Positions 11,007 through 64,000 are shown, counted from the stretch's first letter. The stretch is DNA of 64,000 nt from a virus (IMGVR_UViG_647533160_000003); one strand, 5' to 3'. Translations and numbers: made by a program. Notes: generated by a model from the sequence alone, not told the origin.

Positions 11007-11073
11007 GCTCTCTGTGTGTCGTTTTTTACGCAAATAATGATAGGTAAGCACAAGATTATTTCTGGCGGTAATT

Positions 11074-14363: not shown

Positions 14364-14368
14364 ATTTA

Positions 14369-14455
14369 GGGGAGTTAGTCCGTAGAGGTAGCGGGACAGA
14401 CTGTAAATCTACTGTCATTGCGACTCGGGTGGTTCGACTCCATCACTCCCCACCA
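14369..14455 (+). tRNA. tRNA-Tyr-like (anticodon GTA), class II, atypical anticodon stem
   Basis: Acceptor GGGGAGT/ACTCCCC, loop CTGTAAA, long variable arm, CCA; outer two anticodon-stem pairs are A-C mismatches. Confidence 0.55.
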
Positions 14456-14459
14456 AATT

Positions 14460-14535
14460 GCCGGTTTAGCTCAGTTGGTAGAGCGCCTGCCTTGTAAGCA
14501 GGATGTCAGCGGTTCGAGTCCGTTAACCGGCACCA
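14460..14535 (+). tRNA. tRNA-Thr (anticodon TGT)
   Basis: Acceptor GCCGGTT/AACCGGC, D-arm GCTC-AGTTGGTAG-AGC, anticodon stem CCTGC/GCAGG with loop CTTGTAA, CCA. Confidence 0.85.
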
Positions 14536-14759
14536 ATACAACGATAAGATCATTACGGTTAATCGTCGTTCATGTGCACAATGACTGGTCGAAAGGTAGT
14601 GATCTTACCGTTGTGGTGGATTCGCAGACTGATGCGATAGCTTTCTTGGATGTTAGGGAAATGCGGCCGCAAATCTTCCCTTTCGCGAGCGGTGATCGTC
14701 CGTAGTCCTAATTGGCTGCACCGTATGCCGGAGATTCAGTACCGGCCACCACAACGGCC

Positions 14760-14846
14760 GGAGAGTAGGGAGCATGGTGCTCAAGCGGTCTTGAAAATCG
14801 TCCCATTGTGCAAACGATGATGGTTCGATTCCATTACTCTCCGCCA
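14760..14846 (+). tRNA. tRNA-Ser (anticodon TGA), class II
   Basis: Acceptor GGAGAGT/ACTCTCC, anticodon loop CTTGAAA with G-U-containing stem, long variable arm, T-loop TTCGATT, CCA. Confidence 0.65.
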
Positions 14847-15001
14847 GACACAGCGTTGAGCGGTTTGGCCTTTTAATCAACTCGATTAAGACTCCGCTAA
14901 CATAAACCAGACCGCTCAACGCTGTGATTGACAATTACGGCAGACGTTCTTAACCATAGCTTGCTAACATCCTAGCAACACTTTTTTTCAGCGCAATATT
15001 C

Positions 15002-15024
15002 AAAGGGGCTTCGGCCCCTTTTCT
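15002..15024. terminator. bidirectional intrinsic terminator
   Basis: GGGGC-TTCG-GCCCC hairpin flanked by A-run and T-run, between tRNA cluster and convergent minus-strand operon. Confidence 0.6.
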
Positions 15025-16236: not shown

Positions 16237-16262
16237 TAATTAGGCTCCCGTTAAACCAAAAA

Positions 16263-17084
16263 TTAAAAATCTTGCTTTACTTTATCCATGGTCAGAATTT
16301 TGCTAATAATTGAAGATTCAAATCCATCTAAACCTGAGAGAAAGTTAATTAGCTTTTGGATATGTTGTTCTTTAGGTATAAGTATATATTTTATATCATT
16401 GAACTCAAAATCAATGCCAAACTTTGAAAATTTTGAGCTAATTTTTGCTTTGTCATCAGAAGTGATAACACGCTCCAAACTCAGACTAGGCCATAAATCA
16501 CCAATAAAAGGAGCTGGCACATAACGCCACTCTTTCTCGTCTGCATATATATAATTCTCTATTGTTTTATTATCTTTTCGCTCTAGCTTGCCTCTGTAAT
16601 TTTTCATATAACGCAGTAAATTATATAGATCAGAATATTCTGCTTTCAATTTCTCAAACTCTATTCTGTTTTTGGTATCTAAATTTCCTCTAGCCTTCCA
16701 AAGCGGCACCAACTTATTTTTAATAAGTCGAATTCTGGCATTGTATTTAGAAAATATTTCACTACTCTTATTCATATATAGAACTGGGTGTAGACCTTTC
16801 TTTTCCGCCCAAGACTTAGTTAGCCCAAGACCGAATTCTCCATATTTTCCGCTATGATCTCTGATTTGTGATAGTTTTATGTCACAAAACGATACCATTG
16901 GTACTGCAAACCTCCTGCGTCCCCCGACTCCTCTTATTTCCTCGCGAGCAAGAAATGGTTTAAAATATTTCTCAGCCAATATGCTATAGAAAGCATCTTC
17001 GTTTTTTGTAAAATGAAACAACGTGGTTGGATGAAGACTATAAACAGATTCAACATTCGCATCAGGATTTTCAAGGATAGTCAT
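16263..17084 (-). CDS. hypothetical protein (LFHFT N-terminal motif), first gene of candidate two-gene defense operon
   Basis: About 273 aa from Met 17084 (AGGTG RBS 5 nt upstream; ORF open to 17129); 26-nt gap to downstream gene; AT-rich. Confidence 0.55.
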   Translation of the reverse strand: MTILENPDANVESVYSLHPTTLFHFTKNEDAFYSILAEKYFKPFLAREEIRGVGGRRRFAVPMVSFCDIKLSQIRDHSGKYGEFGLGLTKSWAEKKGLHPVLYMNKSSEIFSKYNARIRLIKNKLVPLWKARGNLDTKNRIEFEKLKAEYSDLYNLLRYMKNYRGKLERKDNKTIENYIYADEKEWRYVPAPFIGDLWPSLSLERVITSDDKAKISSKFSKFGIDFEFNDIKYILIPKEQHIQKLINFLSGLDGFESSIISKILTMDKVKQDF

Positions 17085-17373
17085 TTTACACCTTGTGGAA
17101 AGCCAGTTTAGTTCTGTAAATAGTATCACACGACAGGCGGCTATTCTTCTATCAATAAATGATAGGTAAGCACTTACTTTTTACGCACGTTAACTGTATA
17201 GTTCTTTCGGATACTCACTTGAAAGGACTCAATATGGGAAATAAATGTAAACATGCGCGTCGCGCATCTCGTCAGGTGCAGAAGTCAAATCCATACATTC
17301 ACGAGCACTACCACCTCAGCTCTTTCACTAACCGCTACACGTTCCCCAGCGAAGCGCATAACGAGGCAAAGCA

Positions 17374-17619
17374 ATGACGATCACTATCTATGGACGAGAT
17401 AACTGCTCATACTGCAAACGTGCGGTCGAGCTGGCGAAGCAGCTTCACGGTCACGGTTTTGGCGATTACGAATACATCGATATTGTGTCTGCTGGGATAG
17501 ACAAAGAGAAATTGAGCGCCCTGGTTGGCAAGCCGGTGGAGACCATACCGCAGGTGTTCGTAAATGGCGAATCTATCGGTGGCTATACGGAATTCGCCGC
17601 TCTGGTGAGTACATTATAA
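17374..17619 (+). CDS. glutaredoxin (NrdH/NrdC-like)
   Basis: 81 aa with CSYC redox motif near N-terminus and TIPQVFVNG motif. Confidence 0.75.
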   Translation: MTITIYGRDNCSYCKRAVELAKQLHGHGFGDYEYIDIVSAGIDKEKLSALVGKPVETIPQVFVNGESIGGYTEFAALVSTL

Positions 17620-17624
17620 TTAAG

Positions 17625-17645
17625 AGCCGCTTAGGCGGCTTTTTA
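17625..17645 (+). terminator. rho-independent terminator
   Basis: AGCCGC-TTAG-GCGGCT hairpin followed by TTTTT. Confidence 0.6.
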
Positions 17646-17786
17646 CATGAAAGTGTGCGCTCAAATCAACTATATCTATGAAAAGGACAGTTATAAATAT
17701 TAAAAATATCTAAAATCCCTTCCGATATATGAATTATCAGATTAAAATTTCACACAATGTGCTTTTAATGAGTTATTATTTCACCT

Positions 17787-18411
17787 NNNNNNNNNNNNNN
17801 NNNNNNNNNNNNNNNNNNNNNNNNNNNNNNNNNNNNNNNNNNNNNNNNNNNNNNNNNNNNNNNNNNNNNNNNNNNNNNNNNNNNNNNNNNNNNNNNNNNN
17901 NNNNNNNNNNNNNNNNNNNNNNNNNNNNNNNNNNNNNNNNNNNNNNNNNNNNNNNNNNNNNNNNNNNNNNNNNNNNNNNNNNNNNNNNNNNNNNNNNNNN
18001 NNNNNNNNNNNNNNNNNNNNNNNNNNNNNNNNNNNNNNNNNNNNNNNNNNNNNNNNNNNNNNNNNNNNNNNNNNNNNNNNNNNNNNNNNNNNNNNNNNNN
18101 NNNNNNNNNNNNNNNNNNNNNNNNNNNNNNNNNNNNNNNNNNNNNNNNNNNNNNNNNNNNNNNNNNNNNNNNNNNNNNNNNNNNNNNNNNNNNNNNNNNN
18201 NNNNNNNNNNNNNNNNNNNNNNNNNNNNNNNNNNNNNNNNNNNNNNNNNNNNNNNNNNNNNNNNNNNNNNNNNNNNNNNNNNNNNNNNNNNNNNNNNNNN
18301 NNNNNNNNNNNNNNNNNNNNNNNNNNNNNNNNNNNNNNNNNNNNNNNNNNNNNNNNNNNNNNNNNNNNNNNNNNNNNNNNNNNNNNNNNNNNNNNNNNNN
18401 NNNNNNNNNNN
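17787..18411. other. assembly gap (625 N)
   Basis: Uninterrupted run of n. Confidence 0.99.
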
Positions 18412-19241
18412 GAAATGTTTCTACCACGGTGATAATCCATTCCATAAACCGAATCAATTCCTGAGTTCACTATCTTCATCTGAATTTCAAAAAAATCATT
18501 ATTTAAATCAAAGTAAACAATAGGGACCTCATATCTTCTGCTAGAAAAATCCATTGGTGATAGATAGTTAAGACCATTTGCACTGACCTTCACTTGAATT
18601 CCAGCCTGTATACCTGAATTCGACGTTGGAGCAGAAATAAGTAATTGAGAAAGTGGGTCTCGTTTGTCTATCCACACAATGTCCCGTTGAGTATCATTAG
18701 GTTGATATTTAGTAGGATAGTTAATTTTCGTATAGTTGAGTCCAGTCCCAACAGCTTTATAATTAGACAAACTATCTGTGAAAGGGGTATATCTCTTTGC
18801 TAATAATGCCCAGTTTTCATTTTGTTTCGCGTTTTTTTCACATTCTTCAACAATGAGTGCTTCCGCAATTTTACCTAATATTCTCATAGTTGTTTTATGG
18901 GGATCTAGTTCGATAATGATGTTTGACTTGATCACTCCTTCTTCATTAATACCAACAAGACCTAACTCTTTATCCATGAGTTCAAATAAATTTTCCCCAT
19001 GCTCAATTGCTAACAAAGCTGAAGGTCGTGATAATAATGAAGAGTTATTCCAATCTCCGAGGGAGATATCCAGACCTAAATCAATACCTTTAGTCGTCAC
19101 TACTAGCTGAGGTTTGGGAGGCGTAGCCCCTAATAACTCAGATAGCGTGTTGACTTCCGGTGTCTCTTTTATCATTTTTCTTATCCTGTTGCAGCGATCG
19201 CATGACAATACTATAAAACCAGCCATTTTCAAGTAAATCAA
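18412..19241 (-). CDS. hypothetical protein, N-terminal 276 codons only (interrupted by gap)
   Basis: Minus-strand ORF starting at 19241 and running into the N-run; AT-rich; no motif recognised. Confidence 0.5.
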
Positions 19242-19449
19242 TTACCTTTTAGGTGATGAAGATAAAAGTGAAGCCAACCCCTCCGTTCGAAAAGATAGAT
19301 TCAAAAAAATCGCCCCCCAATGATTCCATACCTACTATGTATGGAATCATTACTGAAAATGAGTTACTTTTACTCTTGATCCTATAAGAATCTATGCCTA
19401 ATATACTGTTTACTTATACAGTGCATCGGCGTAACTCGGTGATTGTCAT

Positions 19450-20553
19450 ATGAAAAATAGCTTTGACAGAGCACGCGCTGCGGAGAACACCTCAAAAGAG
19501 GCGATTGAGTATCTCGAAAGAGCATCTCAAATGCAGGCCGTTATGATCTCCCAGGTCAGCAATGACATGAGATTCTCGGACGCATTCATGTTATTCACTC
19601 GCTTATCTCTGCTGATAACAAGACGTCGGCCAGAGATCGCTGTTCATTGTATTTTGATACATGTTTTGCCGCACATTGCCGATGTAAAAGTAAGTGATAT
19701 TAATAGGTTCATGGTGAACCAACTGGTCAACCCACTAATACTGGATGGCAAAATTGTTATGGGTCGCCGCGTTTTCTCTCTGATGAAGCAGTTCCTCAGC
19801 TGGTGCGCCTTCCAGGGGATGATCGACGTGTCACCGTTAAACGATATGTCACTTAACAAAGTTGCCGGTGGCGCAAAGCCCACACCTCGCGAGCGGAAGC
19901 TGACCGACGCAGAGGTATGGGTGTTCTGGAATATATGGGACTACTTCAATGTGTGTGCTGGTACAAAATGGGCGGCCAGGCTATGTCTTGTATCCGCAAG
20001 ACGACCTGACGAAGTACTGCGGGCTAAAAAAAGTGAGTTCAATCTTAAGCGTGGGGTTTGGAATCAAGGCAAGAGGAACAAATCTGCCCGTGAGCATTCT
20101 CTGCCTTTAAGCTCATTAATGCGCACATGTATTGAAGAGTTGTTCGAATATGGTAAAGACAGCCAGTGGCTCGTGCCTTCGAATAAAAAAATCGGGAAAG
20201 ACCTTCCTATGTCTAAAGTGGCAATAGCCCAGGCATTACGTCGTATTCTGGAACGACCAGAACTGATGGAGCTTGAGCCATTTACACCCCGAGATTTGCG
20301 CCGTACTGCGCGTAGTTACTTCCCAGCATTAGGCATAAGCCAGGAGGTATCACGTAAAATCATGAACCACAGTCTTGAGGGGATAGATCGGGTCTACGAC
20401 CGGCACGATTATATGGACGAGATGCGAGACGCCTTAGAAAGTTTCTCGACGTACATCGCATCAATCGTAGAGCAACCGGATTTAGACGAAATTGACCACA
20501 AATTTAAGGGAGATCGTCTATCAACAGAGCTTATTCGTGTAAATTTTTCATAG
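19450..20553 (+). CDS. tyrosine recombinase/integrase, apparently lacking N-terminal arm-binding domain
   Basis: Catalytic-domain residues in order: R (FNVCAGTKWAARLCLVSARRPDE), H-x-x-R (RDLRRTARSY), NHS, C-terminal DRVYDRHDY; 367 aa. Confidence 0.7.
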   Translation: MKNSFDRARAAENTSKEAIEYLERASQMQAVMISQVSNDMRFSDAFMLFTRLSLLITRRRPEIAVHCILIHVLPHIADVKVSDINRFMVNQLVNPLILDGKIVMGRRVFSLMKQFLSWCAFQGMIDVSPLNDMSLNKVAGGAKPTPRERKLTDAEVWVFWNIWDYFNVCAGTKWAARLCLVSARRPDEVLRAKKSEFNLKRGVWNQGKRNKSAREHSLPLSSLMRTCIEELFEYGKDSQWLVPSNKKIGKDLPMSKVAIAQALRRILERPELMELEPFTPRDLRRTARSYFPALGISQEVSRKIMNHSLEGIDRVYDRHDYMDEMRDALESFSTYIASIVEQPDLDEIDHKFKGDRLSTELIRVNFS

Positions 20554-20940
20554 AGACTTTATGGCCTCAACAACCTTTTGTGATGCGCCTTTCTCTTTAC
20601 CGAATCGCTCGTTATATGCAGCAAGAACCTGTTTTTCGTCCTCGTTAAGAGGAGCAGTGCCTTCTTTGTATAAAAATGCTGCGAGTTCGGGTTGGCGTTC
20701 TTCCAGCACCATCATCATAAGACGACTTGGCTCAATACCCAGTGCCAGCGCCAGCGGACGAACCTTATCGATAGGCAAAGGAATTTTGCCGCTTTTAATT
20801 AAAGAAAGGTTGTTGGCGTTTTTATACCCAATTGTTTTGGCTATCTGGGCCTGGCTCATAGGTGAGGATTCAATCAACCCTGCGATAAAAGCAGCGTAGC
20901 GACTTTCTATAAATTCAATCTTGTTATCAGACATGGTCAC
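20548..20940 (-). CDS. HTH (XRE/Cro-CI-like) DNA-binding regulator
   Basis: Helix-turn-helix MSQAQIAKTIGYKNANNLSLIKSGK; convergent with integrase; palindrome motif copies in the next 170 bp. Confidence 0.6.
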   Translation of the reverse strand: MTMSDNKIEFIESRYAAFIAGLIESSPMSQAQIAKTIGYKNANNLSLIKSGKIPLPIDKVRPLALALGIEPSRLMMMVLEERQPELAAFLYKEGTAPLNEDEKQVLAAYNERFGKEKGASQKVVEAIKSL

Positions 20941-21185
20941 AACCTTTGCGCGTTCAATTCTCTCTGGTAAGTGCTTACCGATATTACATCAAAGGTTAGG
21001 GTTGTAAAGCTATTATCATTTTTTTCGATAGGCACTTAAAAGACCGGTTAAAGGCCATTGCACGGAGAAAAATTAGCCCAAAATAGGTAAGAAAAGTAAC
21101 TTGCATATGATATGAATGTATTCAGTATTGATACAAATTTTAGTAGTATTCCTTACCATAGTATAAGTTAGAATGGATTGATTGA

Positions 21186-21398
21186 ATGAACACCACTATT
21201 TCCAGCCTAATCGCTCTTGAGATCGGACACGTACAAAAATTAGCTGTTGAGTGTGTAACAGACATCCTTACCGATCTACCGAATGAGCAGATTCAGGTTG
21301 GTGTGAATGACACCACTGGCTTTATATTCGAACTTAACAACAAACGCTTCACGCTTCTCAATACCGGCTCCGGGTCTTTAGCCGTCAGAATCTGTTAA
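21186..21398 (+). CDS. hypothetical protein
   Basis: 70-aa ORF. Confidence 0.35.
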   Translation: MNTTISSLIALEIGHVQKLAVECVTDILTDLPNEQIQVGVNDTTGFIFELNNKRFTLLNTGSGSLAVRIC

Positions 21399-21496
21399 CC
21401 CCTCTTCTCCCTGCGCGAATGGCTTAGTTCCCTGTTCGCGCAGTGCTACATTAAACACACTAGTAAATAATTTGTTTTCATAACAAAGGATTAGCC

Positions 21497-23605
21497 ATGT
21501 CTAAAAAACGTTCCATCAAAGAGGTTCAGGACTTCCGTGACAGTGTAAAACGAGTAGTCGCTCTCCTTTCAGGTAAAAACATCCCTGTTGCAGAACGAGG
21601 GGACGACGCTTATGTACGCTATAACGATGATGGAGAGCCAATTCTCGTAAACATCCCATCAATCCCGGATAACGCAACACCGGCATTGATGAATGCTGTG
21701 CGCGGATTTCTCGATCATGAGGTTGCTCACATTTTGTTTACCGATATTCGTGTGTCCAACAAAATGAGAGAAAAAGGACGCGTTCCTTCCTGGTCGCTAT
21801 GGAATGCCTTAGAAGACGTGTTCATCGAGCGAAAAATGGGTCAGGTCTTTAACGGAACAAGACGTAATCTGATGGCAACTCAGCGCCTTATAATCGAAAA
21901 AGTCTTTAAACCAAAGGCTTCAGAGGCTATTGCTTATTGTGGCAAAGATCAGCGCGCGCTTTTTCTAAACTTCTTTCTCTGTCCGGTTGTAAGAGCCTGG
22001 GATGGCCAAGCACCGTTCGTAGATTTCATGGATGAATACTGGCCTGTCATTGAGAAACCAATTTCATTATTAAAAGAACATGGTATCGATGTGGCCGTGC
22101 GTAACATGTCCTGCACCGAGGATTGTGTAAAGGTGGCTGCGACCATAGCTAAGATCCTCAAAGACACTGAAAGTGAAAGCAAAGGTAAGGAGTCAGCTCC
22201 GGGAAAAACTCCCGATCCTTCAGACGCTGACCAAGCGGATTCCTCTGGAGAAAGTAATGAAGACAATGAAGATCACAAGACACATGAGATGCTAGATAAC
22301 CACATATCTATAGATGATGACTCACAAGGTAAGTACATACATGATAATAACGATAGTGATGATTCAGATAATTCTGAATCATCAGAAACAATATTCGATG
22401 ATACAAAAAATGATAAAGAGGTATTAGATTCTGATACTTCCAATAGCGCGACGACAGAAGCAACTACCTCGGATCACGAAAAAAGAAAAACGGCAGAAGA
22501 CGGCTCTTCAGACATTCCCACTCCGTCCAAAATGAGTCTGGAAGAGGCTTTAGAGGAGCTTGATAGCATGGAAGATGAAGTCGGAGGCATGACAGAAGAT
22601 GCACTATCCGAAACGATTAAAAGCGAGTTAACAGAAAGCTCGAAAAGCGAATACAGGCCATACAATCGCTCATACGACTTCATCGGTTCGATTGATCAGG
22701 CAGAAGCCCATATCAAACGGCTTATTAAAACATTCTCCGATATTGATTTAGGTGGATATCCAATCAGCCGTTATCGCATCGTTCCTGAAGGCAACCAACT
22801 CTTCGACAAATATATTGAAAAGCATCTTTCGTCAGGTGTTTCGTCGACGCTGGCAAAAGACCTGGAGCGTGCAATTGCAAGCAGAAACAGAGTTCAGTTT
22901 ATACCGGGCCAGCGTCGGGGGCGCATTCATGGTTCTAGTATCTACAGATTAGCAATGAATGATGATCGCGTGTTTCGTAAAAAAGAAGAATCTAAGGCCG
23001 TTAACGCCTGTGTTCAACAAGTGATTGATTTATCAGGTTCAATGAGCGGCGAAACGATTAAACTGGCTCTTGCAAGTGCATATACCATCGCCGATGCGCT
23101 TGATCGAATAAATGTTCCCAACATTATCACCGGCTTCACAACATTTGGTAGTCATATGGCAGCAGGAGAGCTTAAGGCAATCAAGTATGAGTTCTCTCGC
23201 TTTGAATCTTTAATGCTACCTATCATCAAAAATTGGAATGAAAAGGCCAATTCTCGCGAAGTTCGCTCACGTATGGGGTGCGTAGGCTACACATTCCCAC
23301 TTCTTAATAACGTGGATGGTGAAAGCATAGCCAGCCTTGCATCGTTATTTTCTGGTCGCATGGAGGACAAGAAGATCATGCTTGTTCTAAGCGATGGCGC
23401 GCCGTGGGCTGTTGGGAGAGGTTTTGACGCTCATTTGCGTTCGGTTGCGAAGCAAATTGAAACGCAGACTGACATTGATTTGATGGCAATTGGCATCATG
23501 ACTGACGCACCGGAGAGATTTTACGCAAACCATGCCCTGGTAACGAGCGTTGATAGTCTTGGTTCATCTGTAGTTACTGAACTATCTCGTATCATTTTGA
23601 AGTGA
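21497..23605 (+). CDS. vWA-domain protein (CobT-like), with long acidic linker
   Basis: MIDAS motif VIDLSGSMSG in C-terminal third; central D/E/S-rich low-complexity region. Confidence 0.65.
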   Translation: MSKKRSIKEVQDFRDSVKRVVALLSGKNIPVAERGDDAYVRYNDDGEPILVNIPSIPDNATPALMNAVRGFLDHEVAHILFTDIRVSNKMREKGRVPSWSLWNALEDVFIERKMGQVFNGTRRNLMATQRLIIEKVFKPKASEAIAYCGKDQRALFLNFFLCPVVRAWDGQAPFVDFMDEYWPVIEKPISLLKEHGIDVAVRNMSCTEDCVKVAATIAKILKDTESESKGKESAPGKTPDPSDADQADSSGESNEDNEDHKTHEMLDNHISIDDDSQGKYIHDNNDSDDSDNSESSETIFDDTKNDKEVLDSDTSNSATTEATTSDHEKRKTAEDGSSDIPTPSKMSLEEALEELDSMEDEVGGMTEDALSETIKSELTESSKSEYRPYNRSYDFIGSIDQAEAHIKRLIKTFSDIDLGGYPISRYRIVPEGNQLFDKYIEKHLSSGVSSTLAKDLERAIASRNRVQFIPGQRRGRIHGSSIYRLAMNDDRVFRKKEESKAVNACVQQVIDLSGSMSGETIKLALASAYTIADALDRINVPNIITGFTTFGSHMAAGELKAIKYEFSRFESLMLPIIKNWNEKANSREVRSRMGCVGYTFPLLNNVDGESIASLASLFSGRMEDKKIMLVLSDGAPWAVGRGFDAHLRSVAKQIETQTDIDLMAIGIMTDAPERFYANHALVTSVDSLGSSVVTELSRIILK

Positions 23606-23700
23606 TTAGAATAGCCTTAATGATAAGTAATCACTTACGATATTTGATGGTATATTTATATAAGAAGTTGAAAGCTCATTAGAAAACAAAGGAAAAACGC

Positions 23701-30120: not shown

Positions 30121-30237
30121 TTTTTGATAGATAATAAGTAAGTACTGATCTATCATTTAACAGCTCGAAAGAGCCACGAATGAACGAAAGCCCAACGCGC
30201 ATAGCGCCATCGGCCAAATCACAACAAGGAGAAACAC

Positions 30238-33644: not shown

Positions 33645-33706
33645 TCTCTTGAAAATATATAAGTACTTACTTATTATTTTCGCATAACAACCACATAGGA
33701 AAACAC

Positions 33707-35589: not shown

Positions 35590-35804
35590 GTTTACAGTAA
35601 AATTTATATAAGTTAGTATCTACCTATCATGAAGATTTTTATTGAATACTTGTTACTCATCGTGTCAATAGCTTTTGTCATCGACTGCATTTTCACTGGT
35701 GTCATTCGTAAAGTCTTTTCCCCGGTGAACGACGTAGTCATAAACGCTTTGGCTATCGTGCTCGTATTTAATTCAGCATTTGATGTAATCAAAGAGGTGG
35801 CAGC

Positions 35805-38993: not shown

Positions 38994-39247
38994 CCCTCCA
39001 GATCGTATATTGGCGTAGATAGAATCTACGCCTCCTCAAAATAGCTCTCATAGCGTTCTACAGTGATTCTGTCTTATTTTTAGTCATACAGACAAGCAAA
39101 CTTGCGCCACAATAAATAGGTATATACTTACTTATAAATTTTGTATATTAAGGTGCTAGTTTCATTCCTAACATACCGTTATGCATAGTTGTTTACCTTC
39201 TCATTGCTCTTAGAATTTGTATCAAAATAACCACAAAGGAAAAACAC

Positions 39248-43791: not shown

Positions 43792-43864
43792 TTTTATTGA
43801 TAGGTAAGTGCTTATCTATTAACATGGGCCACTATATTTAGTGGCCCTCTTTATTTGGTGATAC

Positions 43865-47505: not shown

Positions 47506-48375
47506 ATGAACTTTACCAAACTGACTGACCACCTGAAACTTGCCACCGATCGACTCATTGGATTTAAGCCAGAACCATATGAGTTGCATGAAGGCCATGG
47601 TGTAGCCACTGAAAGTATTTACAAGATGGTCGATCAGTTTCATGAACTCTTCCAGCATCCGAGACGCGTTATGCCGACACCAGAGCTGCTTCGTCTCCGT
47701 GCAAGCCTGATTCATGAAGAAGCTGTAGTGGAAGGTATTCCAGCCGCAATGAATGGGGATATTGAGCAACTGCTGGATGCCATGGCCGACTTTTTATACG
47801 TTGGTGTTGGTACGATGGTCGCCATCAAAGGTGGTATTTCTACCGGCATGACCTATTACACGCAGGAACAGAGCATTGATCGCTTTATGCAGACAATTTT
47901 TGTGCCTGGTAACACTGTTTTCGATGATATGGCAATGCCATTTCAGGAAGCTCGTGAGGCGTCATGTATGCTCGAAGAGCTGGCAGATAAACTTGAGAAC
48001 AAGACTGTTAAGGATTCTGAGCTGATTCAGGAACTGCGCCGTGTCATGAACAAAATCTATGTGGCGTGCATGATGACCTATCGACTGGCTGATTTCCTCG
48101 GCATCAATGTAGTCGAGCTGGTTGGCGAAATTCATCGGTCTAACATGACAAAATTATGGCCTGCTGATGTCGAGGAACGTCGCCAGGCTGTGGCCAACTG
48201 CAAATACGACTCTTCAGACCTGGGATTTCGCCATGCTGATGGTACCGATAAGATGATCGGTTTTCGAATTTCCGATGGAAAGATTCTGAAGTCTCCAACC
48301 TATAGTGATGTCGATTTATCCTCCTTTGTTGAGCAAGCTAAAGCCTCAGCAATGTACGGAATGATCAAAAAATAA
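47506..48375 (+). CDS. hypothetical protein; possible MazG-like NTP pyrophosphohydrolase
   Basis: EEAVVE and D-x-x-D acidic motifs in predicted helical region; weak. Confidence 0.4.
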   Translation: MNFTKLTDHLKLATDRLIGFKPEPYELHEGHGVATESIYKMVDQFHELFQHPRRVMPTPELLRLRASLIHEEAVVEGIPAAMNGDIEQLLDAMADFLYVGVGTMVAIKGGISTGMTYYTQEQSIDRFMQTIFVPGNTVFDDMAMPFQEAREASCMLEELADKLENKTVKDSELIQELRRVMNKIYVACMMTYRLADFLGINVVELVGEIHRSNMTKLWPADVEERRQAVANCKYDSSDLGFRHADGTDKMIGFRISDGKILKSPTYSDVDLSSFVEQAKASAMYGMIKK

Positions 48376-48444
48376 TTGTAGGTAGTTATCTATCTATGTA
48401 TATTATGTTGGCGCGTTAAATTCCTGAAGCAACTATTCGTTTTT

Positions 48445-48470: not shown

Positions 48471-48546
48471 TCTATCTGGCCTTGTTCCCACAATAAATGT
48501 AAACTCACTTAATGAATAAGTGATTACTTATCTTTGTGAGGTTTTT

Positions 48547-53198: not shown

Positions 53199-53380
53199 CG
53201 TTCCCCTACTGAAAATAAAGCCCATAGAGAGCTTTATAGTGCTGGGTAAGCTAACCCATACCCAGCACCACAAAAACGCGCCAGAGAGCTTCTTGTTCGC
53301 ATTTCTGGCGCGTTTTATTTGATTGCCATACATGAAATCAAATGCAAAAATAGGTAATCACTTACCTATCGAGAAAGAAG

Positions 53381-53974: not shown

Positions 53975-54135
53975 TTTGTTCTGGCGTCTGTAATTAGCCT
54001 GCTTCTGTATATATAAATAACTACATATTAATTATTAATATACGGAAGCAGGCTGTTTTGTATCAGAGACTCTAGACCTGAACATCACTACAGAATCCAC
54101 TAGACCCCCTTCCCAGACGCTTTAAAATCGATTTT

Positions 54136-54390
54136 ATGAACCACTTTAAGGAAACTAACATGTCATACCCGACTAATGTCGTTGCGCTCGTAGAGAGCGA
54201 TTTTCTGGCCCAGGCTCGTGAAATGATGAAAGATCGCGAGCAGGCTTTCAACTTGTACGAATGGGCAATTAAGTGCTTGCATCTTGGGGAGCATCGCGAA
54301 CTTGTTGAACAGCTTTTAGGTGAGTTGATCAACGAGGTGTTTGCCTTGAATGTTCAACTACATGGTCGAGAAAATAATCAATCGCAATGA
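54136..54390 (+). CDS. hypothetical protein
   Basis: 84-aa ORF. Confidence 0.4.
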   Translation: MNHFKETNMSYPTNVVALVESDFLAQAREMMKDREQAFNLYEWAIKCLHLGEHRELVEQLLGELINEVFALNVQLHGRENNQSQ

Positions 54391-54973
54391 TAGATAAGTA
54401 CAAACTATTCATAAGATGAATTGTAAGTGCTAAGATCTGATAGTTTCCAGTCGTAGACTGGAGACTCGACCTGATGGGTGGGGGTAAGCGTCACTGGCGT
54501 CAGGTTTAAAAAAGCTCACTACCAGCGTAGAACTGGTGCCGTTTAGGTGTCGGGGAAGGGGGAACCAAAGTGAGCAGAGACAAGGGTCACTTTATGATTG
54601 TCGAGTCTGGGGTGTTTCGAGAGGTTGAATCCAGTACTCCCCTTCATAAAGTGTGGGAAGATCTCGGTTCTGGGGTGCTGTCATCCATAACTTCCCAAGT
54701 CTAAGCTGGCAGTAGACTTAGACCATAGCTTTTCAGGTTATGAAACGACCAGGTTGGTGAGGAATTTTATACTCACCTCCCTGGGAGAGTATTACCTGAA
54801 AAGACAACCTCTCACTTCGTTCGAGGTGAACTTCACTCACTTCGTTCGTTCAGTTCAGGTTTATAAAAACCTGTTCTGGGAAGTAATTTGTTTATTTTAA
54901 TAATTATTAACACGCACGCGTGTGCGCACGCGCGAGGAAAAAAATCGGCGCGGCGCTTGATTCAGGAGTTTAT

Positions 54974-55567
54974 ATGACGACGAAGACACCAGCCCGATCG
55001 CAAGCAAAAACTCGCAAAAAAGACAAAAACAAAAATTCTCCCCGCACCAATCCCACAACGCCTGTCGTAGAGTTCAATCCCCAGCTTAAAACCGTGAAAA
55101 TCTTCAGTGATGGCTCTTGCCTTAAAAATCCGGGTGGCCCGGGCGGTTACGGTATAGTTCTCCAGTATCGTGGTGAGGAACGCGAGTTCTCAGATGGTTT
55201 TCATAGCACCACCAATAACCGCATGGAGATGATGGGGGCACTTATCGGGCTGGAGCGTTTGAAATATCCATGCAACGTTATTTTGCACTCTGATAGCCAG
55301 TATCTGAAAAACGGCATGACACAGTGGATGAAATGGTGGAAACGCAATGGATGGATGACTTCTGACAAAAAACCGGTAAAGAATGTTGATTTGTGGAAGC
55401 GTCTGGATGAGGCCGCAAGTCGACATAATGTTCGCTGGAAGTGGGTTAAAGGTCACGCCGGGCATCGTGAAAATGAAATATGTGATCGACTCGCGAAGAT
55501 CGCAGCTTTTTCCGCAGCAGATATGCCTCACAAGAAAGATATTGGTTTTATTTATAACAAGCAGTAA
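54974..55567 (+). CDS. rnhA: ribonuclease HI
   Basis: [56 protein letters not shown] match E. coli RnhA; start at ATG 54974 after AGGAG. Confidence 0.85.
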
Positions 55568-55712
55568 GTAAGTATTTACCTATTATATTAAATCATGTAT
55601 CTTATCGGCGTCAGGATGACAATGTGTCGGTAAGACACAGTTCCAGGATGGAACGAGAAAGGCGGCTGGCAATCGCCAGCCGCAACTCTTTCTGACACTG
55701 GATGGAGTCCAC

Positions 55713-57932: not shown

Positions 57933-59618
57933 ATGAATACAGCCCTTTCCATCATCCACGATGCCAGCTCAAACACGGCTATCGACTATCGTCAGGAAAT
58001 GAATGTCATCAACGAAATCGTGGCTGAGTGCGAGAAAGAGATCGCCTTCATGTATCAGGTACACGACTTCGTTTATGGCGACGAACGCCACAACATGATT
58101 AATCGCCTGCTGAGACTAAACCATCGACCAGATGAAGATCGCTCCCGTTTGAATCGAATCTGGCTGGATAAAGTCGATCTGGAATGGGTGAAACAGAATA
58201 TTTGGGCCGAGTACTGGAGGAAGGTCACGGACATGACTAACGTTTTGCTGATCATGCCAGCTTCCCGTCGAGATGAGTGGCGCGAGCAGTTTATAGAGGG
58301 CAAACAGGAAGTCATCAAAACTGACAGAACCGGCTACCAGATGAGGGTTAAAGAGTTCGTTGGTGTACCGGAGTTCAAAGCAGAAACGGTCATACCCACG
58401 ATGCTTAATTTGCTGAATGACAGGCACAAATATCTCTCTGAGCGCGTGTATGGCTTGTTTAAGGCGCTGAGTCCTGCGCACAAGACAAATAAGACAAACG
58501 GTTTCAGCGAGCGGCTGATAATCGCTGACTGCATTTCTGATTTCTGGCGGGACAGCGTTAGCGTGAACTATCGCAAAGAGGACTACATCGACGATCTGCG
58601 TGTCTTGCTTCATTTCTTCGCGCACAAAGAATTTATTACCATCAACCGCACTGCTGAGGTGCTATCAGCTGCGTATCGGGCAAACGACTGCCAGACTGGT
58701 GACTGGATGAACGTCGATGGAAATCTGATGCGCGTGAAGATGTTCAAGAACGGCAACGTTCACTTTGAAATACATCCTGACGTGGCCTGGAAGTTGAATG
58801 AGGTGCTGGCTTACAGTATGCCTGCTGCAATCCCCGCGCCATGCCGAACTGCGCCAAAAACACGGGCACCAAAGCAGTTCGGTTTAATCCAGAAGACGAT
58901 CTCCGTGCCGGTTCGCACTGCGCTTCGTGACGGGCGATTGAGCAAAGACAAAGGCGTATGGTACTTCTCTGATTCAGCTCTCCAGAAGTCGCAGGTGGAA
59001 GAGCTTGAGCGCACACTGAGCTTCATTGGCGGCGTGCAGGAGAAAAAGCACTGGCAGTTCCCGTATGACATCGGCCATACGCTAAATACGATTGTGGCTA
59101 CCGGTTTAATACCGGATACAAAATCACACCAGTTCTACCCTACCCCACGCTTGATTGCTGAGTACGTTGCCAGAGCCACTGAATTGAAGCCTGGTGAGAA
59201 GCTGCTGGAGCCTCAAGCCGGACGTGGGGATCTTCTGGCCTATATTAACGCCGATCTGGAAGATGTTACCTGCATAGAAATCGCACCTCTCTTCGCTGAT
59301 ATCCTGCGTGGAAAAGGGTATACGAACACGATTTGCTGTGACTTCATAAAGTGGTCTGAGGACAACGCAGGTTATCAGTTCGACAAAATCGTTATGAACC
59401 CGCCGTACTCGCTTGGTCGTCATAGAGAGCACACGCTGGCTGCGCTGGGGCATCTGAAAGTCGGCGGGCGTCTTGTAGCAGTATTGCCGGGCACTGCGCC
59501 AATACTGGACTGGATGACGATGGATAATTACGTTTATGCCAGAGGGAAGTCGTTTACCAACGAGTTTGAAGACACAGGGATCACAGTCAGCGTATACGTT
59601 TTCAAACGCGTTAAATGA
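57933..59618 (+). CDS. two-domain protein: unknown N-terminal domain fused to C-terminal DNA methyltransferase domain
   Basis: C-terminal SAM motif LEPQAGRGDL and catalytic NPPYS; about 400-aa N-terminal region without recognisable motif; start at ATG 57933. Confidence 0.6.
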   Translation: MNTALSIIHDASSNTAIDYRQEMNVINEIVAECEKEIAFMYQVHDFVYGDERHNMINRLLRLNHRPDEDRSRLNRIWLDKVDLEWVKQNIWAEYWRKVTDMTNVLLIMPASRRDEWREQFIEGKQEVIKTDRTGYQMRVKEFVGVPEFKAETVIPTMLNLLNDRHKYLSERVYGLFKALSPAHKTNKTNGFSERLIIADCISDFWRDSVSVNYRKEDYIDDLRVLLHFFAHKEFITINRTAEVLSAAYRANDCQTGDWMNVDGNLMRVKMFKNGNVHFEIHPDVAWKLNEVLAYSMPAAIPAPCRTAPKTRAPKQFGLIQKTISVPVRTALRDGRLSKDKGVWYFSDSALQKSQVEELERTLSFIGGVQEKKHWQFPYDIGHTLNTIVATGLIPDTKSHQFYPTPRLIAEYVARATELKPGEKLLEPQAGRGDLLAYINADLEDVTCIEIAPLFADILRGKGYTNTICCDFIKWSEDNAGYQFDKIVMNPPYSLGRHREHTLAALGHLKVGGRLVAVLPGTAPILDWMTMDNYVYARGKSFTNEFEDTGITVSVYVFKRVK

Positions 59619-59679
59619 TAGGTAAGCACTTACTTGATTTGTGTAAGAATGTAGTAACTAAACGATAAGAGAAAAACAC

Positions 59680-60036
59680 ATGAGCAACCTCCAGTTAGAG
59701 CATTTTAATGTCACAGGCCATTCCGATTTTCCTTTCAAGTTTACATTGAAAGGTTATGCGGAGGATGCGGTAGGCCAGATCATTATTGATAAAGACATCG
59801 TTAAGTTTGAGGGGAATTTTGATGAATCCGCGAAAACATTCATAGACTTTGTTGCCAAACGTTGGAGCGAGCAATGGAAAGACCTTGAAAAGCGCGCCAA
59901 TGAGTTTGACCGGTTCATGGGCGCAATGGATACAGCAAAAGAGGCATTGGCTATGGCGCTCCCTGAACAAAATGACGAAGGCAGGTATGCCAGAAAGCGT
60001 GCGAGTTGCCTGAAAGTCCAGAAAGGCTCACCCTAA
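59680..60036 (+). CDS. hypothetical protein
   Basis: 118-aa ORF with conserved start context; last gene carrying element-type signals. Confidence 0.45.
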   Translation: MSNLQLEHFNVTGHSDFPFKFTLKGYAEDAVGQIIIDKDIVKFEGNFDESAKTFIDFVAKRWSEQWKDLEKRANEFDRFMGAMDTAKEALAMALPEQNDEGRYARKRASCLKVQKGSP

Positions 60037-60890
60037 ATCTGATTTATACAACAAAGCCTCAAAGTGGTCTGGGATGCTTCTTTCGCCACGCCATCCACAT
60101 TCTGTATTCTGTCCTTATGTTTCCTTCAGAGGTTACTTTATTATACTTTGTGGTCGGTGGAGAGGCTAAAACGCTTTCGAGCGTTTCACCAGCATCGAAT
60201 CGCGCGTACAGCTTGTAATCGGCGGCATTCGGGTTTGTCGGCTCACTTTTACCATGACTCATTTTTATCATCCTTTGCGATAAGGTCTTAACCCTGCCAG
60301 ACACCGGCTGCTGACGTCATAAACGAATTTTACGTCAAGTGGTAAAGCACCTTAGGGAATCGACACTTCAGAGATTTCAAATCTTAATACATAGTGAAGA
60401 TCTTACTCAATACTCGCCTGAACGGAATTATTCTTCATCACCGACAGGGGCTGCTGTGCAGTCGAAGATATTGCGCAAAAAGGACTATGGCGCTGGACTG
60501 CTGTTCGTTAACAGGAAGTGTTGATAGATTGTCGGCAGGAAGGGCTGGTAGATTAGCGGATATCTGATAGAGAACAAATACGCCGCACTATGAAGCTGGT
60601 AGCGTCAAAAAACATTGAAACTAAGGAGTCGAGCACTTCGAAAGCATTGTGTAAAGCCACGATACGAATAGATAAAAAAAGGGGAACACACTGAGACCTA
60701 AAACAGCGCACGGAGAACTATATCTTAATAGGGAAAAATAAAATTTATGAAGGGTATGCGTTGAAAACTCTTGCTATTATGTGTGTCGCATTGTTTTTTA
60801 TATTAAATGCATAAAATTTCATGTGGCATTAGAAACCTTGTACTGTTATACTTAACTATTAACAACTATTTTATTGCTATTTATTCAATA

Positions 60891-61400
60891 ATGGATACAG
60901 CGATGAACAATGTGTCTCTTTTGGAAAAGATACTTAGCTATCAAAAAAATAAAGATCAGACTTATCCTGTTCAGGAACATTTGCTAATGCTGTTATGTGT
61001 CCGGGTTAGCAATAAAATTCAAGATGTTATATCAGATGGATTTGGCAAGTACAGAATAAACAACACTATGTTTATGGTATTGTCTTTATTATATATGACA
61101 GATGATTATTGCTTATCTCCTTCTGAAATTAGTAAGGTGTTGCAGGTTACTAAACCAAACATAACGCGAATCACAGATATCTTAGAAAAGAAAGGGGTTA
61201 TTAAACGCGTTGATAATAAACACGATCGACGAGGCAAAAACTTATGCTTAACTCCGGATGGTGTTTTGTTTACGCAAAAAATGATACGTGTGAAAAATAT
61301 AATTATGAAGAAAATTTGGGAAGAGCTATCTGATGATGAACTGAAGATATTCGAGAGTGTAAGCAAAAAAATACTGAATAGTATCGATTATAAATCATGA
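60891..61400 (+). CDS. MarR-family transcriptional regulator
   Basis: Winged-helix region LSPSEISKVLQVTKPNITRITDILEKKGVIKRVDNKHDRRGKNLCLT; start at Met 60891 (ORF open from 60807); AT-rich upstream region. Confidence 0.6.
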   Translation: MDTAMNNVSLLEKILSYQKNKDQTYPVQEHLLMLLCVRVSNKIQDVISDGFGKYRINNTMFMVLSLLYMTDDYCLSPSEISKVLQVTKPNITRITDILEKKGVIKRVDNKHDRRGKNLCLTPDGVLFTQKMIRVKNIIMKKIWEELSDDELKIFESVSKKILNSIDYKS

Positions 61401-61930
61401 ACTCCGTCAAATGATTATTTGAAAACACTTGCACACCATAATGTTATTAATACGATGTACTATCAATTTCAAAGTTATCTAAGGTGAAGTCGCTTATTAA
61501 GCGATGAGTACATGCAATATATGTACTGATAGAGCATCCATTATCTAAAAGTTGCTATATAGATATGAGGTGGGCGTTATTTCTCTAAGTTATGATTCAT
61601 GAATCAGATTATTTTTTTTCGTCAATCAATGAACCATAGGAAATGAAAGAAATTTCATTCTCCATGGTTTATCTCATGTGTTGAAATGCCCCTCTCTTAT
61701 TATATGAAAAAACATTATCAACAACATTGTATTTAATTCGAGATAACGATTTAACAACATTTATTTGACAGGTATTGAATCTCGATTAATTCATGTGTTG
61801 TTACACTTTTTTGTTTGTGATAGCATCCGCGCCCCTGTTGGGGGCATAGACACTCCAATCCAAATATTTCTGGAAGCAAATGCTTTTACTCGCAGTTGCA
61901 AATGTTCGTTAACTCGTTCATCAAGAAATT

Positions 61931-64000
61931 ATGTCAATGTTACGTTTAAATAAAACCTATAAACAACAACGTTTCCGCTATTCTGCCTTGGCTAGATGTA
62001 TGGCATGGGCAAACATCTCTGTTCAGGTTCTTTTCCCATTAGCTGTCACTTTTACACCGACAATGACAGCGCGGGCGCATAATGCGGCTCTGCCTCGTCT
62101 AAGTGCGGAAAATACTGCTGTTGCTACTGACAATAATGCAGAAAAAAATATCGCGTCGGTTGCCGCGAATGCCGGTAAATTTTTAAGCAGTCAGCCGGAT
62201 AGCGATGCGACTCGCAACTTTGTTACCGGAATGGCTACTGCTAAGGCCACCCAGGAAATCCAGGAGTGGCTCGGGAAATATGGCACCGCGCGCGTCAAAC
62301 TGAATGCCGATAAAGATTTCTCGCTGAAGGATTCTTCGCTGGAAATGCTTTATCCGATATATGACACGCCGACAAATATGCTGTTCACTCAGGGGGCAAT
62401 ACATCGCACTGACGATCGCACTCAGTCAAATATTGGTTTCGGCTGGCGCCATTTCTCAGGTAATGACTGGATGGCGGGGGTGAATACCTTCATTGACCAT
62501 GATTTATCCCGTAGTCATACCCGCATTGGTATTGGTACGGAATACTGGCGTGATTATCTTAAACTGAGCGCCAATGGTTATATCCGGGCTTCTGGCTGGA
62601 AAAAATCGCCGGATGTTGAGGATTATCAGGAACGTCCGGCGAATGGCTGGGATATCCGTGCTGAGGGCTATTTACCGGCCTGGCCACAGCTTGGCGCAAG
62701 CCTGATGTATGAACAGTATTACGGCGATGAGGTAGGACTGTTTGGTAAAGATAAACGCCAGAAAAACCCACATGCTATTTCAGCTGGGGTGAACTACACG
62801 CCTGTACCTCTTCTGACCCTGAGCGCAGAGCATAAGCAGGGCAAGAGCGGTCAGAATGACACCCGTTTGGGCCTGGAAATTAACTACCGGATTGGCGAAC
62901 CTCTGGAAAAACAACTCGATACAGACAGCATTCGCGAGCGCCGTGTGCTGACAGGCAGCCGCTATGACCTGGTTGAGCGTAATAACAACATCGTTCTTGA
63001 ATACCGCAAATCTGAAGTGATCCGTATTGCTCTGCCTGAGCGTATTGAAGGTAAGAGCGGGCAGACGGTATCCCTGGGGCTTGTGGTCAGTAAAGCAACC
63101 CACGGTCTAAAAAATGTGCAGTGGGAGGCGTCGTCTTTGCTGGCTGCGGGCGGTAAAATTACCGGGCAGGGCAACCAGTGGCAAGTGACGCTCCCGGCTT
63201 ATCAGGCAGGCAAAGACAATTATTACGCGATCTCTGCGGTAGCATATGATAACAAAGGCAATGCCTCGAAGCGTGTACAGACACAGGTGGTCATTACCGG
63301 TGCGAGTATGAGTGCCGATCGTTCTGCGCTAACGCTTGACGGACAGGACAGTATCCAGATGCTTGCTAATGGTAGCTCGCAAAAAACGCTGGCGCTGTCT
63401 CTGCGCGATGCCGAGGGACAACCTATCACGGGTATGAAAGATCAGATCAAGACTGAGCTGACGTTTAAACCTGCCGGAAACATCGTAACGCGGGCTCTTA
63501 GGTCTGCTAAATCACAGACACAGCCAACATTGGGTGAGTTCACCGAAACTGAAGCAGGGGTGTATCAGTCAGTCTTCACTACTGGTACGCAATCAGGTGA
63601 AGCAACCATTACTGTGAGCATTGATGGTATGAGCAAAACCGTTACTGCCGATTTGCGTGCCACAATGATGGATGTGACAAAGTCCACTCTGAGTGTGAGT
63701 GAGCTTTCAGATGATGTGGCTGCTGATGGTCAGCAATCCTACACGCTGACGCTTACAGCGGTAGATACCGATGGCAACCCGGTGGAGGGAGAAGCCAGCC
63801 GTTTGCGCTTTGTTCCACAGGACAACAGCGGTGTTACCATTGGCACTATTTCGGAGATAAAGCCGGGGGTCTATAGCGCCACGGTTTCTTCGACCCGTGC
63901 CGGAAACGTTGTTGTGCGTGCCTTCAGCGAGCAGTATCAGCTGGGCACGTTACAACAAACGCTGAAGTTTGTTGCCGGGCCGCTTGATGCAGCACATTCG
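61931..64000 (+). CDS. fdeC: inverse-autotransporter adhesin FdeC/EaeH (intimin/invasin family), 5' partial
   Basis: Translation from 61931 (MSMLRLNKTYKQQRFRYSALARCMAWANISVQVLFPLAVTF...) matches E. coli FdeC as recalled; beta-barrel then Big-like repeats; runs off window end. Confidence 0.8.
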   Translation, partial: MSMLRLNKTYKQQRFRYSALARCMAWANISVQVLFPLAVTFTPTMTARAHNAALPRLSAENTAVATDNNAEKNIASVAANAGKFLSSQPDSDATRNFVTGMATAKATQEIQEWLGKYGTARVKLNADKDFSLKDSSLEMLYPIYDTPTNMLFTQGAIHRTDDRTQSNIGFGWRHFSGNDWMAGVNTFIDHDLSRSHTRIGIGTEYWRDYLKLSANGYIRASGWKKSPDVEDYQERPANGWDIRAEGYLPAWPQLGASLMYEQYYGDEVGLFGKDKRQKNPHAISAGVNYTPVPLLTLSAEHKQGKSGQNDTRLGLEINYRIGEPLEKQLDTDSIRERRVLTGSRYDLVERNNNIVLEYRKSEVIRIALPERIEGKSGQTVSLGLVVSKATHGLKNVQWEASSLLAAGGKITGQGNQWQVTLPAYQAGKDNYYAISAVAYDNKGNASKRVQTQVVITGASMSADRSALTLDGQDSIQMLANGSSQKTLALSLRDAEGQPITGMKDQIKTELTFKPAGNIVTRALRSAKSQTQPTLGEFTETEAGVYQSVFTTGTQSGEATITVSIDGMSKTVTADLRATMMDVTKSTLSVSELSDDVAADGQQSYTLTLTAVDTDGNPVEGEASRLRFVPQDNSGVTIGTISEIKPGVYSATVSSTRAGNVVVRAFSEQYQLGTLQQTLKFVAGPLDAAHS

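Follow-up and report, generated by a model that had tools for sequence, protein, structure and literature searches.

The C1 repressor of P1, an enterobacterial plasmid prophage, controls many operators spread around a genome of ~100 kb, and these operators are asymmetric 17-mers (ATTGCTCTAATAAATTT). Repressor sites are also dispersed in the Cluster A mycobacteriophages, where the 20-30 "stoperators" found genome-wide (those of L5 gp71 among them) fall mostly in short gaps and are mostly promoter-free; they are 13-14 bp long, lack dyad symmetry, are bound non-cooperatively and are oriented with transcription, and their proposed effect in L5 is to stop elongation and so keep the prophage silent (PMC6550527). 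The dimeric repressor KorA of the incompatibility group P (IncP) plasmid RK2/RP4 is described as coordinating many operons through short, dispersed palindromic operators (PMC2665229). Here we consider a palindrome of 20-22 bp that recurs along IMGVR_UViG_647533160_000003, a stretch of viral DNA of 64,000 nucleotides (the window), which comprises ~60 kb of an SSU5-like phage-plasmid together with accessory cargo. Between positions 40000 and 60000 the window shares 98% identity with E. coli phage-plasmids such as Escherichia phage Cyrano (OV696614, pLF82) and plasmid NZ_CP100547, and 78% identity with Salmonella phage SSU5. By the Cyrano annotation, the genes run from lysis and partition to replication, immunity, recombination and nucleotide metabolism, ending at ~59950, and nearly all of them are carried on the plus strand.

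An earlier reading of the same DNA (the original prediction) compared the motif to the scattered operators of P1-type repressors. As an analogy this stands, both being enterobacterial plasmid prophages of ~100 kb with many sites and one repressor, here a putative one. The site is, however, a perfect dyad of 20-22 bp, the candidate repressor is an Xre-type helix-turn-helix (HTH) protein of 128 amino acids (aa) that family matches set apart from C1, and copies also occur within the late structural operon. With the stoperators the motif shares number and placement (28 sites per genome, some in gaps of 26-55 nt), but the sites are symmetric, so that orientation cannot matter, the host is Gram-negative, the repressor belongs to another family, and a block to elongation is in this case something we infer. 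KorB is a ParB-family protein of IncP RK2/RP4. The operators of KorA and KorB are unrelated in sequence to the present motif and, in contrast to KorB, the ParB_N-domain proteins of the element are silent in lysogens and match no Pfam HTH family. The motif system works like the dispersed regulons of P1, L5 and RK2 and belongs to none of those families. The searchable literature yielded no account of the motif, nor of how SSU5-like elements control lysogeny; the kind of system is well known.

Sequence, symmetry and distribution of the palindrome

The flagged copy, AATAGGTAATCACTTACCTATC at 53349-53370, has perfect 8-bp arms (ATAGGTAA/TTACCTAT), in agreement with the near-perfect palindrome first placed at 53350-53370. 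With at most three mismatches, the consensus of the original prediction (GATAGGTAAGnnCTTACCTATC) matches the window three times, against 0.00 in shuffled sequences, and with at most six it matches 17 times, against 2.2. The strict core TARGTA-N6-TACYTA occurs six times where 0.023 occurrences are expected, and all six are intergenic. A palindromic position weight matrix (PWM) refined on the window and applied at a threshold of at least 13 bits gives 22 matches, 18 of them intergenic under a crude open reading frame (ORF) model. The matches at 17161 and 48511 are called coding solely through over-extended ORF starts of that model; the truly coding ones are just those at 22291 and 22324, both weak. 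Seventeen of the 18 sites listed originally score at least 13 bits, the eighteenth (21083-21104) being just a left half-site (ATAGGTAAG), and three further sites were absent from the list (4766, 54012 and 54389). Most copies do lie between a stop codon and the gene that follows, as had been said of them, and no PWM match falls in the 60.8-64 kb region, from which the motif had been reported absent. Several occupy gaps of 26-55 nt, ending 0-10 nt before a start codon or overlapping the previous stop codon.

The complete Cyrano genome contains 28 PWM matches, of which 26 are intergenic in a genome that is 13% intergenic; 0.3 intergenic matches are expected in Markov-1 sequence of intergenic composition. 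Seven copies lie in or beside late structural and lysis genes (Table 1), showing that the motif is not confined to early genes; the copies in the late structural operon were out of sight of the original prediction. No copies were found in the accessory regions, nor beside the lysogen-expressed minus-strand modules (toxin-antitoxin pairs, RepA and the MinD-like gene).

A search with an exact 16-base version of the motif against 2.9 million viral contigs (IMG/VR) returned 44 loci, 41 of which are SSU5-like and align to Cyrano at 71-84% identity. High frequency in coding DNA or in unrelated genomes, which the original prediction had named as grounds for abandoning it, was thus looked for and did not emerge. 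When the adjacent CobT-like gene was used to retrieve loci, those of Y. pestis pMT1, Buttiauxella, Kluyvera, two Xenorhabdus species and Morganella proved to contain the motif, and an unrelated Desulfosarcina CobT locus has no copy. The positions of the copies are orthologous across E. coli, Yersinia, Kluyvera, Buttiauxella, Xenorhabdus and Morganella. In identity the motif columns (76%) exceed their flanks of ±40 nt (64%), and they do so at 17 of the 18 individual sites (Wilcoxon p=1.5e-4). The palindrome is real, symmetric, intergenic, specific to the family and under purifying selection.

A near-identical motif is found in elements from Escherichia, Klebsiella, Salmonella, Yersinia, Xenorhabdus and Morganella and persists in SSU5, which lacks the HTH gene discussed below, as might be expected if the site were read by a host transcription factor conserved in the Enterobacterales. 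The NarL/NarP heptamer TACYYMT fits the arms ATAGGTA/TACCTAT, and the GTAAG/CTTAC core recalls UvrY/GacA boxes. We nevertheless regard a host factor as very unlikely: the exact matches are almost restricted to one viral family, the orientation and spacing of the arms appear to differ from the NarL 7-2-7 and GacA N6 arrangements, and a general host regulon would not explain why accessory and lysogeny-expressed modules are free of the motif.

The dyad centre lies between positions 11 and 12 of the consensus (A/G)ATA(A/G)GTAAG T|A CTTAC(C/T)TAT(C/T), and the two halves agree in base frequencies once one of them is mirrored, indicating that each half is conserved independently. Since the palindrome occurs in transcribed intergenic gaps, with folding energies of -7.1 and -7.8 kcal/mol for its two best copies, a hairpin acting in RNA or DNA (a processing site, messenger stabiliser, terminator or element of the repetitive extragenic palindromic type) was also considered. 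This reading is largely refuted and we find it barely credible. Eight of ten copies fold no better than shuffled sequences, Watson-Crick pairs form at just 60% of arm positions and no compensatory changes occur between the arms, while on the transcribed strand G:T (32) and A:C (26) combinations are about equal. All four combinations are found at positions 5/18 at similar frequencies; read directly from the sequence, a stem could hold at most two G-C pairs and is followed by no consistent T-run, and no Rfam family overlaps any motif copy. What is conserved is the sequence of each half and not its ability to pair, which argues for a site of a dimeric protein that binds double-stranded DNA and against an RNA element. 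The suggestion of an operator-like site is upheld to this extent, the palindrome being dispersed, intergenic and element-specific, and having the features expected where a dimeric protein binds DNA.

The immunity region and a candidate repressor

The HTH protein encoded at 20548-20940 is the best candidate binder of the motif and a putative prophage repressor, as first proposed. A motif copy at its predicted promoter, its synteny, its confinement to the family and its transcription in lysogens all point in this direction. It is the sole classical sequence-specific DNA-binding protein identified in the core genome, with family matches to phrog_8 ('transcriptional regulator') and, weakly, to Pfam HTH_19. 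The fold is Xre-type, with five helices, and its closest structural matches, at weak E-values, are proteins that bind palindromes as dimers (C-proteins, HigA, ClgR and a Salmonella phage repressor); at the sequence level, comparison with solved structures gave no match. No S24 peptidase domain is present. The invariant residues cluster in the helix-turn-helix (Q28 I31 A32 G36 Y37 N41 N42 S44 K47 S48 G49 K50). In every plasmid-type relative the gene is syntenic, between a tyrosine recombinase gene and a divergent 70-aa gene, and homologues are confined to SSU5-like contigs, mostly ~100-116 kb in size. The sites and the HTH gene occur together in every plasmid-type relative examined, phage SSU5 having the sites without the gene. 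The Cyrano ortholog, CYRAN_45, is 100% identical to the HTH protein. CYRAN_45 has been listed as a putative repressor and reaches 96 against a background of 9.8 in lysogen RNA sequencing (RNA-seq), a difference of ~10-fold (PMC9928086).

The region between the HTH and 70-aa genes holds one full palindrome, one compressed copy and two half-sites. A promoter scan places the predicted HTH-gene transcription start in the middle of the palindrome core (20966-20979). Apart from one C/T change, this core, GGTAAGTGCTTACC, does not vary among E. coli, Yersinia, Kluyvera and Buttiauxella. The TAGTAT hexamer before 21152 may be read as the -10 element of the 70-aa gene, which is syntenic in all plasmid-type relatives and missing from SSU5. 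With its divergent gene pair, motif copies and half-sites between them, an operator over the predicted repressor promoter and an Xre-type fold, the region resembles an ordinary divergent switch of the CI/Cro type. It differs from the lambdoid case in that ~95% of the copies lie outside the immunity region, to which lambdoid operators are confined, and in that the putative repressor has no S24 peptidase domain.

On balance, we consider it probable that the motif is the operator of a dimeric DNA-binding protein encoded by the element, most probably the 128-aa Xre-type repressor. Three points here are ones that we infer: the identity of the binder, repression as the outcome of binding, and a block to elongation at copies within operons. 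In the plasmid-prophage state the repressor would occupy ~20 sites of the window, or ~28 of a complete genome, each in a gap of the rightward-transcribed phage genes, and would thus silence the genes of the virus. The copy over the predicted promoter of its own gene would provide negative autoregulation. Another apparently covers a methylase promoter: by reading of the sequence, copy 53349 spans about -9 to +13 of the conserved, predicted promoter TTGCCA-17-AAAAAT. Where a promoter is present, binding would occlude it, and elsewhere the bound protein may form a roadblock to read-through, as at the mycobacteriophage stoperators. Copies in gaps too short for a promoter, such as the terminase-portal gap of 26 nt, could act only as roadblocks. 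At the remaining sites the motif stands in places upstream of possible -10 elements, and several gaps have no room for a promoter.

Another protein of the element may instead be the binder, namely the 70-aa protein acting in the manner of Cro, a 119-aa ParA-linked protein with centromere-like sites comparable to the dispersed ones of N15 SopB, or the ParB_N-domain proteins. We rank this alternative as unlikely, below those discussed in the following section. The 70-aa and HTH genes share the motif-bearing intergenic region, but the former is also missing from SSU5 and its product has no recognisable DNA-binding domain. The 119-aa protein is expressed in lysogens and is 91-100% conserved in all phage records found, SSU5 included, and two motif copies lie just 3' of the par operon. 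Upstream of the parA operon, however, where a centromere or operator would be expected, no motif is found (best score 2.6 bits), and we know of no plasmid centromere made up of ~28 dispersed sites. One copy lies 27 nt upstream of a ParB-like gene, yet the ParB-like proteins match the ParB_N domain alone and their lysogen levels equal background (5.0 and 9.5).

Three further candidates were rejected. The UmuD-like protein (a 'LexA-like S24' protein in Cyrano) has no HTH. The FljA-like 'transcriptional regulator' lies in an accessory module and is assigned to Pfam Flag1_repress, the 'repressor of phase-1 flagellin' family, which acts on mRNA. A role of the motif as core site of the tyrosine recombinase was dismissed since ~28 dispersed copies would scramble the genome, and since SSU5 keeps the sites without the recombinase. 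The motif was likewise rejected as a LexA site, the sole CTGT-N8-ACAG in the window being at 19406-19421. This LexA-box-like sequence (TACTGTTTACTTATACAGT, 19404-19422) directly follows a TAATAT hexamer, lies 28 nt upstream of the tyrosine-recombinase gene and is kept in Cyrano, pMT1 and Kluyvera. The recombinase gene (19450-20553, plus strand) converges on the repressor gene (20548-20940, minus strand) with a 3' overlap of 6 nt, and in published RNA-seq from the macrophage interior the recombinase is up ~26-fold and the 70-aa gene ~90-fold. As the putative repressor lacks the S24 domain, SOS-driven convergent transcription could be the route of induction upon DNA damage.

Phage SSU5, promoter geometry and lysogen expression

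The annotated SSU5 genome passes from tRNA-Asn to the CobT-like gene without the recombinase, HTH and 70-aa genes, and tblastn finds the HTH gene in Cyrano-type and Klebsiella-type phages and not in SSU5. The closest plasmid relatives of this SSU5 segment, ~93% identical, carry the recombinase-HTH-70-aa module. SSU5 was reportedly obtained from plaques and has the appearance of a phage-plasmid derivative that lost its repressor by a natural deletion; a recent deletion of this kind would support a role of the module in lysogeny.

A number of observations weigh against the Xre-type repressor as reader of the motif. Repressor-less SSU5 keeps 19 matches in 50 kb, scoring up to 30.5 bits, and all seven late-region copies stand at the same places; this pattern equally allows a recent deletion and sites that also work without the HTH protein. 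The motif is almost unchanged from Escherichia to Xenorhabdus, yet the HTH protein drops to 36-39% identity, and immunity operators usually diverge fast. Xenorhabdus and Morganella, whose recognition helix has SAHNN in place of KNANN, show a shift at half-site position 9 from A towards T, but this co-variation, with p=1.3e-5 in the first sample, weakened to 70% against 44% A after 80 more loci; it reflects a single evolutionary event, and we take it as suggestive at most. All promoters in this analysis are predictions. In lysogens, the expression of genes behind gaps with and without the motif does not differ significantly (Mann-Whitney p=0.12; Fisher p=0.32), and CYRAN_34 and CYRAN_81 are expressed though a motif copy lies upstream of each.

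The retention of all copies in a lytic phage without the repressor makes it possible that the palindrome is a family-wide cis-element that works independently of the Xre-type protein, in place of an immunity operator or in addition to being one. One form that such an element might take is a boundary or roadblock code, read by a phage protein, that divides the single-direction genome into transcription units. If, on the other hand, the Xre-type repressor is the reader, the motif would represent the first symmetric 'stoperator' silencing system of a Gram-negative phage-plasmid. To these readings we assign a minor though real chance, the first among the alternatives.

Ranked next, and unlikely in our view, is a cis-element of the lytic cycle, either the site of a phage activator or part of a phage-specific promoter, which would stand at the start of most transcription units and be needed for lytic growth. 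SSU5 retains every site at full strength, copies precede nearly every gene block in both the early and the late region, conservation of the motif is deeper than usual for immunity operators, and several copies are followed after 24-37 nt by a TGnTAnnnT-like extended -10, with no -35 hexamer. As a fixed promoter element, however, this TGnTAnnnT sequence had to be rejected, being equally frequent in a mirror-image control. Downstream -10-like hexamers are not enriched over this control (34 against 39, and 14 against 16 sites), and the motif flanks contain no fixed-distance signal. The distance from motif to hexamer ranges from ~19 to 37 nt among sites and differs by 5 nt between orthologs that share a conserved TATAGT, whereas activator-dependent phage promoters (the T4 MotA-box and P1 Lpa) keep a fixed, one-way distance to the -10. 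The absence of a fixed promoter geometry and the variable placement fit a repressor rather than an activator. Several copies in gaps of 26-55 nt leave no space for both a promoter and a leader, another covers the point where transcription of the repressor gene, on the opposite strand, is predicted to begin, and a perfect dyad is unusual in a directional promoter element.

The Xre-type repressor is also compatible with RNA-seq of lysogens, which does not settle the matter. Expression of 55-89 in the parA operon gives way to 6 in the gene that follows, and the gap in between holds two motif copies, which is suggestive. Among the strongly lysogen-expressed genes in the gap comparison, two of 13 have an upstream motif, and one of the two is the repressor gene.

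Some low-scoring variants (4766 and 54012 in the window, 108356 in Cyrano and 57745 in SSU5) open with TATAAATA, which is the T4 late-promoter consensus; this may be chance. The element encodes many T4-like replication and recombination proteins.

Neighbouring features and significance for SSU5-like phage-plasmids

Table 1. Copies of the palindrome and associated features. Positions refer to the window unless another genome is named.
Feature	Position	Strand	Score (bits)	Remarks
Weak copy TATAAATACTAAGTTACTTATT	4766-4787		13.8	Intergenic; equivalent copy in SSU5; newly found
Copy AATAAGTAAGTAACTACCTATC	4894-4915		25.9	Centre to next start codon 13 nt
Copy GATAAGTAGATACATACTTAAG	10162-10183		18.8	
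Copy GATAGGTAAGCACAAGATTATT	11039-11060		14.9	Left half alone good
Copy AATAAGTATTTACTTACCTATC	13521-13542		26.4	Followed by conserved non-coding block, then tRNA cluster
Copy GATAGGTAAGCACTTACTTTTT	17161-17182		26.6	Spacing to conserved TATAGT hexamer varies by at most 5 nt among orthologs
HTH gene (Xre-type)	20548-20940	minus		Probable start ATG at 20934; 128 aa
Immunity-region copy	20962-20983			Core GGTAAGTGCTTACC (20966-20979)
Predicted sigma-70 promoter of HTH gene	20981-21008	minus		TTTACA, 16 nt, TAATAT; hexamers conserved in four genera
Compressed motif-like element TCGATAGGCACTTAAAAGA	21025-21043			Immunity region; TTCGATAGGCA part kept in relatives
Isolated left half-site ATAGGTAAG	21083-21091			Originally listed as 21083-21104; not kept in relatives
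Isolated right half-site CTTACCATAG	21152-21161			Directly 3' of TAGTAT hexamer
70-aa gene	21186-21398	plus		Divergent from HTH gene; cro-like position; phrog_2627, function unknown
Copy GATAAGTAATCACTTACGATAT	23622-23643		14.7	Motif at same place in 4/4 relatives
Copy AATAAGTAAGTACTGATCTATC	30133-30154		25.4	Upstream of gp32-like single-stranded DNA-binding protein (SSB) gene
Copy AATATATAAGTACTTACTTATT	33654-33675		26.2	Terminator-like hairpin immediately before
Copy TATAAGTTAGTATCTACCTATC	35607-35628		21.4	Abuts next ATG
Copy AATAGGTATATACTTACTTATA	39115-39136		24.7	Upstream of SbcD-like gene
Copy GATAGGTAAGTGCTTATCTATT	43799-43820		27.9	Upstream of nrdA
Weak copy TAATTGTAGGTAGTTATCTATC	48373-48394		14.5	
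Copy AATGAATAAGTGATTACTTATC	48511-48532		20.3	Upstream of thymidylate synthase gene
Flagged copy AATAGGTAATCACTTACCTATC	53349-53370		27.3	Methylase ATG 10 nt after; motif in 12/12 relatives
Copy TATAAATAACTACATATTAATT	54012-54033		18.0	Newly found
Copy GATAGATAAGTACAAACTATTC	54389-54410		17.8	Newly found
Copy AGTAAGTAAGTATTTACCTATT	55563-55584		23.3	Overlaps RNase H stop codon
Copy GATAGGTAAGCACTTACTTGAT	59617-59638		23.5	Overlaps stop codon of DUF4942 gene
Cyrano copy				Terminase-portal gap, 26 nt
Cyrano copy				Within portal gene, 3' part
Cyrano copies				3' of major capsid gene and 5' of a tail gene
Cyrano copies				Gap between tail genes M and L; gap between J and tail fibre
Cyrano copies				Ahead of holin gene; ahead of ParB-like gene
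SSU5 locus lacking the recombinase-HTH-70-aa module	11776-12761 within SSU5 30001-80000			Compare window 14289-21497

Several conserved or variable stretches adjoin motif copies. The leader of ~85 nt between copy 30133 and the start of the T4 gp32-like SSB gene (30155-30237) is almost invariant among relatives that are 80% identical, and by analogy with T4 gene 32 it is a candidate translational autoregulatory operator. Between copy 43799 and the nrdA start at 43865, a terminator-like hairpin (GGGCCACTATATTTAGTGGCCC then TCTTTATTT; 43826-43856) may act as an attenuator; a comparable order of motif and hairpin follows the capsid, M and J genes of Cyrano. A strongly conserved non-coding block (13545-14288), flanked by copy 13521 on one side and by a cluster of four tRNA genes (Asn, Tyr, Thr and Ser; 14289-14846) on the other, could be a leader or an uncharacterised small RNA. 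The stretch 14365-19296 is a strain-specific insert of low GC content (32%) that is not found in Cyrano and is probably a defence island, containing an AbiGi-like gene (16263-17129, minus strand) as well as large minus-strand ORFs that have no annotation. It holds a single motif copy (17161), with orthologs of that copy in Kluyvera and Buttiauxella. Beside the primase gene, but in the opposite orientation, a Sel1-repeat protein gene (8306-9451, minus strand) is inserted where the window has no alignment to Cyrano.

The last 4 kb of the window (59950-64000) harbor a MarR-family regulator gene (60807-61400) and the start of a gene for an FdeC-like inverse-autotransporter adhesin. The original prediction took 60.8-64 kb for chromosomal DNA. 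Another circular SSU5-like plasmid, CP056250.1, however, has the adhesin in the corresponding place, flanked by the DUF4942 and MinD-like genes, and the region is therefore accessory plasmid cargo.

SSU5-like phage-plasmids are common in the Enterobacterales: more than 800 plasmid records match the window, among them Y. pestis pMT1, and S. Typhi pHCM2 is a further SSU5-like element. Phage-plasmids in general are described as often carrying antibiotic-resistance genes (PMC9600943). The motif provides a simple sequence signature by which SSU5-like members can be recognised in assemblies, and a defined operator with a named candidate repressor predicts which genes are silenced in the plasmid state. 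Its near-invariance across the family predicts that members are cross-immune, including immunity of lysogens to the biocontrol phage SSU5. If the Xre-type repressor is indeed the reader of the motif, one nearly invariant specificity would be common to pMT1, to elements of the pHCM2 type and to the E. coli phage-plasmids that carry extended-spectrum β-lactamases, and cross-immunity would extend throughout the family.

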